Shown here one piece after another: positions 1 to 7,709 of a stretch of DNA of 24,395 bases; the stretch's first letter is position 1, and each line of letters begins with the position of its first letter. Both the position numbers and the translations under genes were made by a program. The stretch covers positions 1 to 24,395 of the forward strand of contig JBHIAH010000037.1 of the NCBI GenBank assembly GCA_046758505.1. Direction: 5' to 3'. The notes below the pieces were generated by a model, which saw nothing but the letters and a program-made list of their open reading frames with translations, was not told where the DNA came from and did not search any database. This stretch comes from Candidatus Methylomirabilales bacterium. Lineage in GTDB: Bacteria > Methylomirabilota > Methylomirabilia > Methylomirabilales > CSP1-5.

Positions 1-184
1 CCTGACCCTCTCCGCACTCCCCCAAGCTGGAGGCGGCGGGGCTCCCGGTGCAGGGGCAGCAAGGCAATTCGACTCCAACCCCAATTTCGCTTGCTAGAGA
101 AGCAGTCCGATGGGATGGTGCTTTTTGAGCATGTGAATCTGCCTGTTTGTGTAGCTTGGAGCACTTAGAGGAGGTAACAAACAA

Positions 185-415
185 ATGATGAAGAAGCTCG
201 CAGTGGTAGCTTTAGTATCGTTCTTGTTTGGCGTAGGTTCAACCGCAGCCGTGCTAGGGCGGTACACCTACATCATCAAATCTTATACAAGCCCAGGTGG
301 TCTAGGATATGGGGGTCGCCTAGTCACTACCAATACCATCGTTCGGATAGATCGTCTAACGCAGCAAGTGTGCCGCGAACATCGGGGTAAGTGGAAGTGC
401 GATGGGAAGCTATGA
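185..415 (+). CDS. Small hypothetical protein with N-terminal signal/TM segment
   Basis: Strong SD (GAGGAGGT ~168-175) before ATG; MKK followed by a hydrophobic stretch; no family recognised. Confidence 0.7.
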   Translation: MMKKLAVVALVSFLFGVGSTAAVLGRYTYIIKSYTSPGGLGYGGRLVTTNTIVRIDRLTQQVCREHRGKWKCDGKL

Positions 416-590
416 GTGACTGGGAGACTTATTCCGGTAGTTATCAAATCTACTCGTCCCCCTGGAAATCAGGCTGTTAGACTCCGTCTCGAGAGTCACA
501 TCTAATCGGGGGTGGCTCAGGCCTTGATGTCTTGATATCTTTCGTTGAGACCTCCCATCCTATAGGAAAGAGGGATGCGGGAGGGGGAGA

Positions 591-613
591 GAAAAGGTGT
601 CAGGAACCTTTTC
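591..613. repeat. REP-like hairpin GAAAAGGT-gtcagga-ACCTTTTC
   Basis: Perfect 8-bp inverted repeat with a 7-nt loop, containing a GGTGTCAG core. Confidence 0.6.
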
Positions 614-806
614 CGCTCTTGAACTCAGTGCTGCCGCCACAGGACTGGCCACGCCGCTTATTCCGGGTGTTGGGCCGGCTCTACGGAGGGTGGGCGCATG
701 GAAAGCCGGAGAGCAAGAACAGCTCGCCAGGAGTTATGTCTCCCGGCAATAAATCACAACCTGCTTTACCGCTTATCCTAATCCCGCGTAGCCGTATGAG
801 GAAGCT

Positions 807-1553
807 GTGTACCCCACATCGCGCATAGACATTTCTGACGAGGTACGCCGCACGCTACCATCACCTCTTTTGGCCGTTCTGGATGAGATTGAAAGGGCAT
901 ACGGACGACATATCCCCTTTTTCTTGGTCCAAGACCTCGGGGTTACTGCAAGCGGGCGGGGCGATCCCCAGGGCTTTGTGGAACTGCCACCACAATCGCG
1001 CTGTAATTTGAACGTTATGGGCGAGGAGATTATGCATTTGCACAGATGGACGAGGGGATACCCAGCTATCGAGCCAAAAGCACTCGCTTATCAAGAAGGG
1101 TACGCTCATCACCTCCAAGCATTTGGAGGGCACTTTGATGAGTATGTATTTTTCCCCTTTCTGGAGAGTATTGGACTTGATCCTCGAAGCGAGTTACACG
1201 CGCGCATCGTCGAGGCCCTGGGTAGCCTGACGGGCGGGTTGCTTGATCGCCTCCAACGGGTGCACGGATCTGGAGAATTCAGCGCGGAATGGCGAGTAAA
1301 GCTTAGCCGCACTTACCTTGTGGCGGCTTTGCTGAGTGGACCGTTACCTGAAAGGGACTCACTTGTTCAACTATTCGAGGGGCAGCCGCTCCGACCATAC
1401 GGGGAGTTGGGGCGACGAATCGCCTCGGAGATAGCCGGCGCGCATGAAGAAACCGGGGATCAAGTTGCGGCCCGCATGAGCACTTGTCTATTCACACACC
1501 TCAGGCTGCCCAGAGATACTGCAACGATTCGTTACCCTTTCCGATCTACCTAG
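807..1553 (+). CDS. Hypothetical protein, possible zincin-like metallopeptidase fold (EExxH variant)
   Basis: 248-aa ORF with GTG start and GAGG upstream; beta-strand GFVELP followed by helix GEEIMHL, in the position where HExxH usually sits. Confidence 0.65.
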   Translation: MYPTSRIDISDEVRRTLPSPLLAVLDEIERAYGRHIPFFLVQDLGVTASGRGDPQGFVELPPQSRCNLNVMGEEIMHLHRWTRGYPAIEPKALAYQEGYAHHLQAFGGHFDEYVFFPFLESIGLDPRSELHARIVEALGSLTGGLLDRLQRVHGSGEFSAEWRVKLSRTYLVAALLSGPLPERDSLVQLFEGQPLRPYGELGRRIASEIAGAHEETGDQVAARMSTCLFTHLRLPRDTATIRYPFRST

Positions 1554-1598
1554 AGCACACATAAAGGGTCAGGATAGCGGAGGGGATGGTTTTCGAGA

Positions 1599-1853
1599 AT
1601 GAGAGTTGAATGCTATGCGGCGACGAGGCCGCAGGATGGGCGGACGGCAAATGAAAATGCCTTCCTGATCATCCGCGATGGAATTCCGGTCGCGGCGGTC
1701 TGCGATGGGGCCGGAGTTGCCGAGCAGGTGGCCAAGCGAGTAGTGAGGCTCTTTGAATTGTGGGTTCGCGAGGTGACCATTGGGCAGATCCTCCGAAAAA
1801 TATGTATTATGTCCCCGGAACACCGGCCGGAAGTGAACGTCCGCCCCGCGTGA
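1599..1853 (+). pseudogene. Truncated PP2C/SpoIIE-like phosphatase (N-terminal fragment)
   Basis: GRTANENAF (cf. R..NED) and AAVCDGAG (cf. DGxGG) motifs; only 84 aa, with similarity apparently lost near 1795. Confidence 0.65.
1795..1820 (-). repeat. REP-like site TTCCGGGGACATAATACATATTTTTC
   Basis: AT-rich motif at the PP2C break; a degenerate second copy (CCGGGAGACATAACT) lies at 732-746 on the minus strand. Confidence 0.45.
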
Positions 1854-1983
1854 TAGGTCCTCCATTACATTTCCAGCGGGCCACCCAAGACCGGTTGAAT
1901 AAGCGGACCGATCCCTAATCCTTCAAGATTTGCCCATGAGTGTTGGCCTTTGATCCTTAAGAAAAGCGAGGTGAACCCTCGGC

Positions 1984-2892
1984 ATGCTGATTCAAGATGT
2001 GGTCATTCACACAAATGAAGGGATTCAGGGGGGAGGAATTATCCTGCCCTCCAGACCTCCCATACAAGGGCGGTTTGAACTCACGGACGACTTGTGGATC
2101 GGTCCCCTGGAAGACGATGTTGCGGAGAGGGTACTCGACTGCTGCGAACCGCCGGGTTGCTGGGTTAGGAAACCACCCAGACCATTCCACCAGCTTTACA
2201 CTTACGTGCGAGAACCTGTGCCCCCGGAAGAAAAGTACAAGTGGGATGCCGACCGCCGCTTACTAACTTGCGTCGCGTTATCCCGACTTGTACATCCGAC
2301 CTTGGTCTCGTTCCGGTATGCAGCACAGATTATCTACAATTCCGACGGAACCATGAGGGAAGTCGTTCCCGGTCCAGTGCAAGGTCATGGTGCTGATGCA
2401 TGGCCGCCTAACGAGGACGACCGCGACTGGCTCAACGATACTGACCTTGAGGTTCTGAAACAGCTACTTCGCGAGTTGCCAACAGCAATTCTTCCACCGC
2501 GTGTCTGGCGCGCTTTCTGGTACCACGAGTTCGCGGCCAGAACGCAATACGCCGACGTCAGGTGTACCCTTATCACCACAGCTGTCGAAGCACTGGTGCA
2601 CACGGATCGGCAAAGTTCAACGCGTCAGTTCACTGAACGAGTCCCCGGAATAGCAGCCGACGTAGGAGTGGTCAATTTCAGCAGGGATGATGCTGAGACA
2701 GCTTATGATTTGCGATCGCGGTTATCACATGGGCAAGGTCTTGAAACCTTTACAGCTGGCGACCGCCAGATATATGAGCGGATGGAAACTATTCTTCGAG
2801 CGGCCGTCATACGTGCCATTCGTGACACAGGGTTTGCCCAGGTCTTTGCAACAGAGCAGGCTATTAGGAATCGCTGGCCATTGGGGCAATAA
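1984..2892 (+). CDS. HEPN-domain protein (ApeA-like C-terminal HEPN), putative RNase
   Basis: 302 aa; SD GAGGTG upstream; LITTAVEAL helix followed by AYDLRSRLSHG (Rx4H). Confidence 0.8.
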   Translation: MLIQDVVIHTNEGIQGGGIILPSRPPIQGRFELTDDLWIGPLEDDVAERVLDCCEPPGCWVRKPPRPFHQLYTYVREPVPPEEKYKWDADRRLLTCVALSRLVHPTLVSFRYAAQIIYNSDGTMREVVPGPVQGHGADAWPPNEDDRDWLNDTDLEVLKQLLRELPTAILPPRVWRAFWYHEFAARTQYADVRCTLITTAVEALVHTDRQSSTRQFTERVPGIAADVGVVNFSRDDAETAYDLRSRLSHGQGLETFTAGDRQIYERMETILRAAVIRAIRDTGFAQVFATEQAIRNRWPLGQ

Positions 2893-3171
2893 CCGACTGG
2901 CATGCCTAATGGTACCATCCTTGCTGCGGAATTAGAGTCGTAACCCTTACTCCGAGGTGTGAGGGATCAAGTCCCTTGCCCCACCCTTGACAAGCTCAGT
3001 CCCACGTACGAGGAGCGCGATTCAGGAACATGCGGAGCGACCCCATTAAGGAAAAACTGGAGCGGACCGTCGCGAGTGAGTTCTTACCGCTCTACAACCT
3101 GGCGAAGGGTAGTAATTTCAGAATTCTCCGAGCAGGCGTACCACCGGAGGGAGGTTGGCCAATGCCTTGCT

Positions 3172-3297
3172 AAAGCTGCCCTGGCGGTTTACTTTGCCCT
3201 CTACAACTTTGTGTGGATTCACCAAACGCTAAGGGTGACTCGGGCGATGGCAGCCGGGATCACGGATATGGTGTGGAACCTGGAGGAGTTATTATGA
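3172..3297 (+). pseudogene. C-terminal remnant of an IS1-family-like DDE transposase
   Basis: KAALAVYFALYNFVWIHQTLRVTRAMAAGITDMVWNLEELL matches the characteristic YNF.R.H.TLRVTPAMAAG.TD..W tail; the upstream part is missing. Confidence 0.75.
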
Positions 3298-3491
3298 ATT
3301 TTCTTAAAAGACTATGGTGGACGTGGGGTGTTATCTCTATGATCGCCCTTATTGAAACTGTAGTGACGTACCAGTCTTCTTGGGGAGATAGCTTGTTGGA
3401 TCGATTTGGAGGGTTTTTTCTCGTTACCGCTGTCGCCTATATCTGTGGCGCAGCTTCGCGAGACTTTTGGTGGAAGTCGTCCTCAAATTAG
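3294..3491 (+). CDS. Small two-TM membrane protein (65 aa)
   Basis: SD GGAGGAG 3282-3288; ATG overlaps the transposase-remnant TGA (ATGA); two hydrophobic segments. Confidence 0.6.
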   Translation: MNFLKRLWWTWGVISMIALIETVVTYQSSWGDSLLDRFGGFFLVTAVAYICGAASRDFWWKSSSN

Positions 3492-3548
3492 GGCATGACC
3501 CGACGCCACCGTGTAGTGCTTGTTCGTATTGAACGCGATATACTGCAT
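3483..3548 (-). pseudogene. N-terminal remnant of an IS110-family transposase
   Basis: MQYIAFNTNKHYTVAS resembles the IS110 start M.YIxxDxHKxYT, with the catalytic D replaced by N; stop after 21 aa. Confidence 0.55.
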
Positions 3549-3560
3549 GGTGGGTTCGTT

Positions 3561-3588
3561 GGGGGTCTGACGTTGGTATTTGATATTT
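3561..3588 (+). repeat. REP-like site GGGGGTCTGACGTTGGTATTTGATATTT
   Basis: Related copy at 508-540 (GGGGG[TGGC]TCAGGCCTTGATGTCTTGATATCT). Confidence 0.5.
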
Positions 3589-3713
3589 GCACGCGGTAGA
3601 GGTTTGCGCGTCCGACCTGGTGACGACACCTGGCCCCTTCTCTCTCTTTCTCCGCTCTTCTGGCAAGCGCGCGCTCTGAAGGGATGGGCCTGGTGGAGGT
3701 AAGGGCAGCGACG

Positions 3714-4523
3714 ATGCGATTTGTTATTGACACCAATCAAGCATCATTGCTGCCCAGTAAGCGAGCCTTGGCAGTATCCCTTTCGCCGTACGTGCTATCC
3801 GAGATTCTCCTGCGAGGGGACCCAAGTCCGACTCTAGAGCTTCTTCGTACCTTCGACATCCGCCTTGGCCTGGAGACATCGGACGTCATGGTTCAACTTG
3901 CCCAGTTATCACCGCAAGAAATAATGACGTTTGAACCCTTTCCCGTGCCGGCACAAAGCTTTCGGCAAGACTACGAAGCAATCCGGAAGGCGATTGATGC
4001 CCCTAGGCCAGCACACATTCACCGGGCTCGCTATATCAAGGATAGGCACCTCAGGCACTGTAAATCATTAGTAGAGAGTGCAAGAATATTTCGGAGGCAC
4101 CTCCGCGAACGTGGGATGGCGAATCACAAGTTCTCAACCTTTGAGCAAGCATTGTCTGAGCTAGCCTCAACTCCCGACTCCTTCCTCAGAAGCGTAATAA
4201 TTGGCAGTATCACACATGACGGCAGGCGCACCACAAAGGCACAACCCGCTGAGCTCGTGGATGGGTGTATATCAAACCAATATGTCGGGGGGCTGTTTCG
4301 TGCGCAACTCGCTTACCACATATGTATTTCCCGTTTGTGGAAGGAAGAAAGCCTCAACTTCGATCCATCCCCAACACGGGACGACATGACGGACATCACC
4401 CTGCCGCTCTACGCTGCAGACGGCGACATCATCGTTACTGGCGACACGAAGCTAACCCTTCTAGTGTCTCTCATCGAACCAGAAGGCAAGGTCAAAGCCT
4501 GCAAAGCAAGTGAAATAGTGTAG
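3714..4523 (+). CDS. PIN-domain-like protein with a large insertion
   Basis: N-terminal FVIDTN, a conserved E (VLSEIL), and C-terminal DDMTD...IIVTGDTKL give the PIN acidic pattern; start set at the ATG of MRFVIDTN. Confidence 0.7.
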   Translation: MRFVIDTNQASLLPSKRALAVSLSPYVLSEILLRGDPSPTLELLRTFDIRLGLETSDVMVQLAQLSPQEIMTFEPFPVPAQSFRQDYEAIRKAIDAPRPAHIHRARYIKDRHLRHCKSLVESARIFRRHLRERGMANHKFSTFEQALSELASTPDSFLRSVIIGSITHDGRRTTKAQPAELVDGCISNQYVGGLFRAQLAYHICISRLWKEESLNFDPSPTRDDMTDITLPLYAADGDIIVTGDTKLTLLVSLIEPEGKVKACKASEIV

Positions 4524-4592
4524 AGGCGATTGGCCTGAGGTCGCTGCCCATCTACTTCAAGGGCGATTCCTACATCCCTAGCCTGACGGACC

Positions 4593-4903
4593 TTACCGCT
4601 TTCGGAACTGGTAGACGATTTCGCCGGGACGCACCAGCCCCAGATCCTGGCGGGCGATCTCCTCGGATCGGGAGGGATACCGGCGCATCGCCTCGACCTC
4701 GTGCCGGAGCAGCGCGTTCTCGTGCGTGAGGCCTTCGATCTCCTGCTCGAGGTGCGCCTTGGTGCGTTCCATGTGGTACAGTCGGAGCAGGCCCCGATCC
4801 CCGAACAGAGACAGGAGGAGCAAGAGGCCCAGGAAACCGAGGAGGAGCATGAGGCCAGGCCGCGGCGGTTTCGTGTGCACCTGCGTCGGATCCTGTTCGG
4901 GCA

Positions 4904-4904
<1 letters not shown>
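4593..4904 (-). CDS. ftsB: Septum formation initiator, FtsB/DivIC family
   Basis: TM helix, GDRGL, coiled coil, EEIARQDLGLVRPGEIVY; directly downstream of eno (conserved synteny). Confidence 0.88.

Positions 4905-7709
<2,805 letters not shown>

Follow-up and report, generated by a model that had tools for sequence, protein, structure and literature searches.

The 24,395-nt stretch analysed here (the window) is the entire contig C37 of a Candidatus Methylomirabilales genome (G000; 2.99 Mb in 149 contigs), and the sequencing runs containing it carry the label hydrothermal vent metagenome. Its GC content is 52–56% up to position ~4500 and 59–71% past that point, where ftsB, enolase and other core genes start. 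The first part, referred to here as the island, holds accessory genes, gene fragments and eleven short motifs (Table 1), which a preliminary description made from the sequence alone had presented as the boundaries of a gene-cassette array and had linked to RAYT-like Y1 transposases. The letters and coordinates given for all eleven motifs match the contig exactly. By sequence identity, the sites at 591–613 and 1790–1820 are firmly assigned as solo copies of the terminal inverted repeats (TIRs) bordering Y1/HUH transposase genes in elements termed TIRtrons.

Table 1. Features of the island and of its junction with ftsB. Scores out of 24 are from the nearest-neighbour comparison with TIR ends; copies were counted at up to 2 mismatches, with the reversed sequence as control. 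ORF, open reading frame; IS, insertion sequence.
Feature	Coordinates	Strand	Remarks
Outer TIR end, GGGTCAGG type	1..10	-	Cut off by contig end, no score possible; very likely real
69-nt unit ending in site 66–86	23..91	+	Probable solo element end
ORF, 76 aa, hydrophobic N-terminus	185..415	+	No Pfam match above cut-off
Listed motif	446..462	-	16/24, background level; single copy at 2 mismatches
Probable degenerate TIR	508..540	+	18/24, shuffle mean 0.33
Solo TIR, GGTGTCAGGA family	591..613	+	Hairpin in itself, fold -5.2 kcal/mol
Listed motif	732..746	-	14/24, background; single copy, control 1
Intact 248-aa gene, no assigned function	807..1553	+	17 proteins at E<=0.001; best other 70% identical, equal length
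Listed motif	1563..1573	+	14/24, background; single copy; within PP2C upstream region
PP2C-type phosphatase gene, 5' fragment, 65 codons	1599..1792	+	77% to residues 1–65 of G006 homologue
Solo TIR, GGGGACATAATAC family	1790..1820	-	Right-end type (right-end assignment is an interpretation)
Intact 302-aa gene	1984..2892	+	86% DNA match to metagenome contig L116
Listed motif	2930..2946	-	15/24, background; single copy
Short ORF piece, probably 5' gene fragment	3030..3149	+	No family match
IS1-family transposase, C-terminal piece	3172..3297	+	Matches last 42 aa of ~300-aa frames; one frame matches PF03400 over cut-off
Hydrophobic ORF, 65 aa	3294..3491	+	No family
49-nt gene start resembling IS110 transposase N-terminus	3500..3548	-	Resemblance by eye
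Probable solo TIR	3561..3588	+	13 bits; 17/24
Listed motif	3624..3640	-	Contains 7-nt core; 14/24, background; single copy, control 2
Intact 269-aa gene	3714..4523	+	46 proteins at E<=0.001; no site on right side
3' end of ftsB (divIC)	4595..4657	-	62/63 nt repeated at C43:1–63

Relationship of the island motifs to TIRs

Site 591–613 agrees with the TIR of the Y1 gene on contig C6 at 21 of 22 nt, a one-base difference, and shares 21–23 identical nt with both ends of the Y1 element L057 in genome G005. It scored 18/20 in the genome scan described below, and a genome-wide copy search at up to 2 mismatches returned six copies, itself included, against 0 in the reversed control. Site 1790–1820 has five genome copies, is present in 14 of 151 genomes (control, 0) and belongs to a family that frames Y1 genes at five loci (L076, L087, L088, L109 and L110). 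These two sites, which carry the letters GGTGTCAG and GGGGACAT just as their parent TIRs do, are the only ones of the eleven shown to match a TIR that frames a Y1 gene. The letters of site 1–10 are the same as those of the outer TIR ends at the Y1 genes on contigs C3, C13 and C70, and a contig of run X1 carries at window position 1 a 19-nt tandem duplication of core plus flank, the hallmark of real TIR outer ends.

A nearest-neighbour test compared 24 nt per site with a library of 149 TIR ends that lie beside Y1 genes in one phylum, including three loci of the unpublished genome G007. Sixty shuffles of the island gave means of 2.8 matches at scores of at least 17 and 0.33 at scores of at least 18, and none at 20. 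The score of 20 at 1816 (−) thus exceeds all 60 shuffles; that of 18 at 513 (+) is marginal, those of 17 at 82 (−), to the TIR of L145, and at 3562 (+) are at a level reached by shuffles, and the rest are background: 16 at 463 (−), whose nearest match came from a G007 locus, 15 at 2946 (−) and 14 at each of sites 732, 1563 and 3624. Site 591 received 15 only through the loss of its family in anchoring. Unit 23–91 has a 77% match at C14:1562–1628 of the same genome (E = 4e-5; the look-alike is given as 71 nt) and one further motif copy in G003, and no Y1 gene with its exact end was found; nor was an intact element with an end like 508–540. Site 3561 has a second copy at C6:23531–23559 (29 nt, E = 0.28). 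On these comparisons the eleven sites divide into two firm, one very likely, three probable and five unsupported, and about half of the motifs are probably due to chance.

The preliminary description had also treated the motifs as one family loosely sharing the core GG(G/T)G(T/A/C)CA, which is not borne out, and the core is not enriched in the island. The core occurs in only three of the eleven sites, which derive from several families, and these are its only three occurrences in 1–3660 (596+, 1816− and 3637−). Its density there, 0.82/kb, is below that of the remaining window (1.01) and of the genome (1.09). By the G-run, six sites lie on the minus strand and five on the plus strand. A weight matrix built from 56 Y1-flanking TIR ends only placed two of the eleven sites (596+ and 3562+) at 6 bits or more. 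At 12 bits or more it gave four matches in the island against 0.55 in shuffles, a number reached by 1 of 150 shuffles, and two of the four fall within ORF 807–1553, outside the listed motifs. A single weight matrix for all sites was dropped as too mixed, having recovered 2 of 11.

Y1 genes and solo TIRs across the genome

A PF01797 search identified 12 Y1_Tnp genes in G000, all on contigs other than C37. As had been noted before, the window therefore has no Y1 enzyme and hence no intact TIRtron, and no Y1 remnants were found beside the window sites. TIR pairs were obtained for 11 of the 12 genes by alignment and for the twelfth by eye, and HUH and catalytic tyrosine motifs were listed for 10. 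Counting L119 and L120 only once with L045 and L044, which are the same stretches, 108 distinct Y1 loci from the phylum were compared; 89 passed an automatic inverted-repeat cut-off, and a few of these pairs resemble repetitive extragenic palindromes (REPs) or are spurious. Library ends were matched at 18/20 or better 107 times in the genome and once in the reversed genome, and 81 of the matches are solo TIRs outside the 12 elements, occurring as singles or in clusters. With 12 TIR-flanked Y1 genes, the TIR on C6 being of the site 591–613 type, and 81 strong solo TIRs, the proposed link of such motifs to Y1 enzymes holds.

More than half of the solo TIRs (56%) lie in DNA below 60% GC, against 13% at random, and 40% lie within 1 kb of contig ends, against 10%. 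A neighbour within 3 kb was present for 45 of the 81. The 29 neighbouring pairs comprise 10 of one family and 19 of differing families, and are arranged directly in 16 cases, outward in 8 and inward in 5. No Y1 remnant was found beside 67 of 76 genome solos, a count that overstates bare ends, as a family with a non-library parent is missed. The window has one match at 18/20 or better and so is not among the strongest clusters.

Cargo junctions and the cassette model

The proposed site at the break of the PP2C-type gene is confirmed, since the gene, whose G006 homologue matches PF13672 and NF033484, is cut after codon 65 at the TIR at 1790–1820. The same joint is present in a related strain from another study (run X5, depth 3–8), and no remaining PP2C piece was found elsewhere in the genome. 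The break lies at the inner side of the TIR with a 3-nt overlap, in that the other copies (n=5) align from 1790 and PP2C homology extends to 1792. An inner-side joint with three shared bases agrees better with a deletion from within an element than with a cassette insertion.

The larger proposal was that a Y1 enzyme encoded elsewhere recombines at the sites and stacks single genes, as an integrase does with attC, and this is very unlikely. Candidate trans-acting enzymes do exist in the genome, the outer ends of TIRs bear marks of processing, 4 of the 29 neighbouring solo pairs are direct repeats of one family spaced by more than 250 nt, and contigs C9 and C19 respectively carry three same-orientation right-end remnants and a gene enclosed by same-family ends. 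E. coli TnpA-REP, moreover, performs strand transfer in vitro and has been proposed to sequester flanking genes (Ton-Hoang et al., PMC3333891). The firm and probable window sites, however, are of different families and face both ways, most neighbouring pairs in the genome likewise differ in family, the cargo is fragmentary, and the PP2C joint destroys a gene from the inner side of the TIR. Nor does one site bound each gene, as the breaks at ~3149–3172 and 3297 are without a site and gene 3714–4523 has none on its right. In the one case that shows whether a site travels with its gene, the 86% homologue of gene 1984–2892 on L116 lacks the downstream 2930 site and is followed by a C-terminal piece of the same PP2C family; for the other cargo genes no genomic context was found. 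Of 21 blocks that G000 clusters share with relatives, only 2 stop within 20 nt of a TIR, and one of these is the end remnant itself; this comparison misses degenerate sites. No joint between two sites was found in four runs, for which the data are assembled contigs only, which lose rare variants, and three of the five holders of the stretch may represent the source sample. Both X1 and X4 have contigs that span 1–5050 without a joint. An X5 joint at 1583–1657 (22-nt side, depth 3) and the uncovered X5 parts were not used.

The claimed absence of attC sites stands, as none follows any gene and the one box pair in 1–4700 (354–482) starts inside ORF 185–415. An Rfam scan of the island gave no match at E<=1, the listed strings contain no GTAG/CGTC tag, and among five folded stretches only 591–613 forms a clean short hairpin. 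Integron arrays carry an attC site (RYYYAAC...GTTRRRY hairpin) after each gene, of one site type and in one orientation. The island resembles such arrays, including attC arrays lacking an integrase, in being a low-GC run of co-oriented accessory genes, and differs from them in that none of its genes is followed by attC, the window lacks an integrase, and neither site type nor polarity is uniform. Elsewhere in the genome, attC-like hairpins border a BrnT gene on C6 that is 92–94% identical in G008 and G012. The contig ends of C86 and C23 carry C-terminal tyrosine-recombinase pieces, and we take the C86 end to read like the tail of an integron integrase.

Insertion at the 3' end of ftsB

Contig C43 begins with the repeated end of ftsB, and its genes come after ftsB in 9 of 11 fetched loci. 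As the native downstream DNA is on C43 and the ftsB end is repeated there, the island is an insertion at the ftsB 3' end, and sequence comparison indicates that bases 1 to ~4590 are one arm of this accessory insertion. The island swaps the last bases of ftsB, with one silent change and a new stop codon. A duplicated target at a core-gene 3' end and an empty site in relatives, both of which are seen here, are features of a site-specific integrative element, and no TIR is present at the joint. The exact overlap of C37 and C43, 55 nt, is the common assembler overlap present at 138 of 298 contig ends, and the start of C43 may be either a second attachment site or the empty site of another strain. 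No integrase was found on C37, which ends at position 1; the four PF00589 matches in the genome are all on other contigs.

The same spot holds an unrelated intact TIRtron in G012 (L038), three solo TIRs beside truncated genes in G011 (L041) and, in unpublished data, a Y1 gene in G007, and by these comparisons the locus downstream of ftsB is a recurrent hotspot. The L038 and L041 inserts, which are unrelated, span 2–3 kb just downstream of ftsB and contain toxin-antitoxin-like genes (by eye).

Stutters and joints at TIR outer ends

Exact tandem repeats of at least 10 nt, referred to as stutters, are present on the outer side of 19 of 97 TIR ends and on the inner side of 1 of 97. For comparison, they occur in 0.8% of random stretches and at 14 of 1338 cores that do not belong to TIRs. 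Five other G000 clusters (C9, C4, C18, C6 and C20) were compared with relatives. Core homology stops 7 nt outside the TIR at C9, where nine of nine fetched relatives go on into the native promoter, ~9 nt outside at C4, and after 67 nt of stutter at C18. At C18:34773 (L253:1274–1341), the outer end is followed by stutter repeats of 6–7 nt and runs into the interior of a gene that three relatives carry uninterrupted. Taken together, the stutters and joints at the outer ends suggest cutting there.

A somewhat unlikely account is that the window sites are passive passengers, two or three real TIRs having been imported or having survived deletions, with the other motifs being chance G-rich words and the island having been built by an integrase, IS elements and microhomology without Y1 cutting. 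The unenriched core, the five sites at background level and the three nucleotides shared at the PP2C joint, as in a microhomology deletion, are consistent with it, as are the absence of stutters within the window at all 12 window sites tested and the TIR-free duplicated target at ftsB. Against it are the genome-wide stutters, which are specific to outer ends and include that at position 1 in run X1, and the core genes or promoters broken beside outer ends at C9, C4 and C18.

Two further loci carry accessory genes among TIR ends. The insertion at C9:21361–27404 (L271), of ~6 kb, is absent from relatives at that spot and has a TIR outer end 7 nt from its left joint, a 5'-truncated Y1 C-terminus (E = 1e-12) near its right joint, and an imperfect ~18-nt target repeat at both ends. 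Between three right-end remnants of the same orientation it carries NYN and HEPN modules as well as modules identified by eye as HicAB and nucleotidyltransferase. At C19:35078–36445 (L251), a 370-aa DUF3800 gene lies within inward-facing ends of the site-1795 family, with a 60-nt end dimer on one side, and is possibly a cargo-carrying non-autonomous element.

Other genes and fragments of the island

Three or four pieces of the cargo are incomplete genes. A search of 60 further genomes of the class did not find gene 807–1553, nor was its context found in viral contigs, and no context of gene 3714–4523 was found in 40 other genomes or in viral contigs. As weak leads, the latter gene is PIN-like (Atlas score 0.87, PIN on 23% of members) and gene 1984–2892 is HEPN/Apea-like (Atlas score 0.88, family on 11% of members). 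A GCACAA..GTTGCAC motif adjoins PP2C genes and the homologue of gene 1984–2892 (L116:1059 and 1431; L045:5909) and sits in a high-copy repeat of ~110 nt with many occurrences in relatives. One base at window position 2567 is missing in the contigs of X3 and X4, and not in that of X1, which would shift the frame of gene 1984–2892 there. The related strain in X5 (record 32, depth 7) diverges at 3149, a position without a site, and the IS1 piece has no site at either end. The preliminary description had placed an IS110 fragment 12 nt from a motif: the distance to site 3561 is correct, while the IS110 label is unconfirmed and has no profile match. Other contigs of X1 and X3 match 3500–3548 and are then unlike the window on both sides.

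Several further candidates were rejected. An additional site at 3496–3503, abutting the IS110-like piece, was not accepted (15/24, single copy). Pattern searches of 151 genomes for the families of sites 66 and 3561 gave matches in 2 genomes and 1 genome, the lone outside copy having no adjoining Y1 gene. Scans of viral contigs with three site patterns and the IS110-like start returned 2, 0, 2 and 0 loci, which were taken as chance because none has a Y1 gene. Searches of plasmids for four short stretches that bear sites, for the IS110-like piece and for ORF 3030–3170 gave chance-level matches or none.

Discussion

With two sites identical to TIRs, Y1 genes and clustered solo ends in the genome, stutters, and joints at some outer ends, the island is probably a decaying patchwork that, as at other variable spots of the genome, has gathered the ends of several different TIRtrons, its sites being scars rather than reusable cassette boundaries. 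The PP2C, IS1 and IS110-like fragments in its cargo favour this interpretation. In the order of events that we infer, a Y1 enzyme would bind its own TIR on single-stranded DNA and, by analogy with E. coli TnpA-REP, would nick at or near the outer end of the TIR and rejoin. Nicking and rejoining would insert elements or single ends, make short tandem stutters and at times delete adjacent DNA, and later deletions would remove the transposase gene, giving solo ends beside gene fragments.

Several observations weigh against a patchwork of scars. Low-scoring sites may belong to missing families, because the TIR library covers one phylum. Genes 185–415 and 1984–2892 are each followed 31–38 nt on by a same-strand site of the 66/446/2930 subtype, which is cassette-like; two of the three sites of this subtype score as background. 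Core homology did not stop at the outer end at C6 and C20, and the three base-level joints were chosen because alignments pointed there. The toxin-antitoxin-type layout of the C9 insertion also appears more ordered than a heap of scars predicts.

Di Nocera et al. 2013 (PMC3733652) described TIRtrons, also designated TIRYTs, as RAYT-like Y1 genes lying between TIRs that carry a GGGGWSAS-type motif; further TIR copies occur apart from the gene, singly, as dimers or in clusters. The Y1 genes of G000, framed by TIRs and accompanied by dispersed TIR copies, are alike. G000 differs from that description in having many TIR families in one genome, mixed in the same variable spots, in the absence of a Y1 gene from the window, and in that some families depart from the motif (GGTGTCAG and GGGGACAT); even a looser 7-nt core is held by only 3 of the 11 sites. 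Quentin et al. 2018 (PMC6006769) tied the arrangement to TnpA-Y1 subclass 2.1, which is RAYT group 1 in the Laurenceau preprint, and among true RAYTs it is group 1 whose distribution is reported to be the most IS-like (PMC5581495). A C-terminal helix-turn-helix (HTH) at E<0.01 in 7 of 10 G000 Y1 proteins scanned, together with TIRs and the absence of nearby REPs, would be in keeping with subclass 2.1. The proteins of L008, L057, L088 and L109 (224–251 aa), whose TIRs match sites 591 and 1795, are unlike it in having no HTH match and may belong to another subclass.

The related enzyme E. coli TnpA-REP cuts single-stranded DNA close to its site and recombines it, and the pick-up of flanking genes or fragments has been proposed for it (Ton-Hoang et al., PMC3333891). 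Its sites, in REPs and bacterial interspersed mosaic elements, are GTAG-tagged palindromes, unlike most of the window sites. No cleavage data or biochemistry for TIRYTs were found in a literature search. The nearest existing proposal to cassette capture concerns prochlorosin genes, among whose variable gene set subclass 2.1 genes and C-terminal fragments are interspersed, and for which a role in diversification was proposed (bioRxiv 10.1101/2020.03.09.984088). That case differs in having one cargo family, a fixed distance and no TIR link there, and the authors' own note withdraws the causal claim. Two works that employ the terms TIRYT or TIRtron were found in the literature, and a description of cassette capture by these enzymes was not, most subscription journals being outside the search.

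A broader idea, which is unlikely, is that the Y1 enzymes linked to TIRs serve these genomes as a general accretion machine. Nicks at outer ends would admit foreign single-stranded DNA, accessory genes, including toxin-antitoxin genes, would pile up by old ends, and several enzymes and site families would operate side by side. The C9 insertion and the enclosed gene on C19 fit this idea better than the window does, and the C9 insertion is a better test case than the window for the stacking of genes. If true, such a machine would amount to a counterpart of integrons that is HUH-based and loosely specific.

The window adds one genome to a class of TIR repeats that is already described but little studied. 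G000 combines 12 enzymes whose TIRs are distinct with dozens of solo ends, a strong stutter signal at outer ends and relatives in which sites are empty, and so makes the role of TIRYTs directly testable, and if these enzymes capture genes, they would represent a new route of accessory-gene acquisition.

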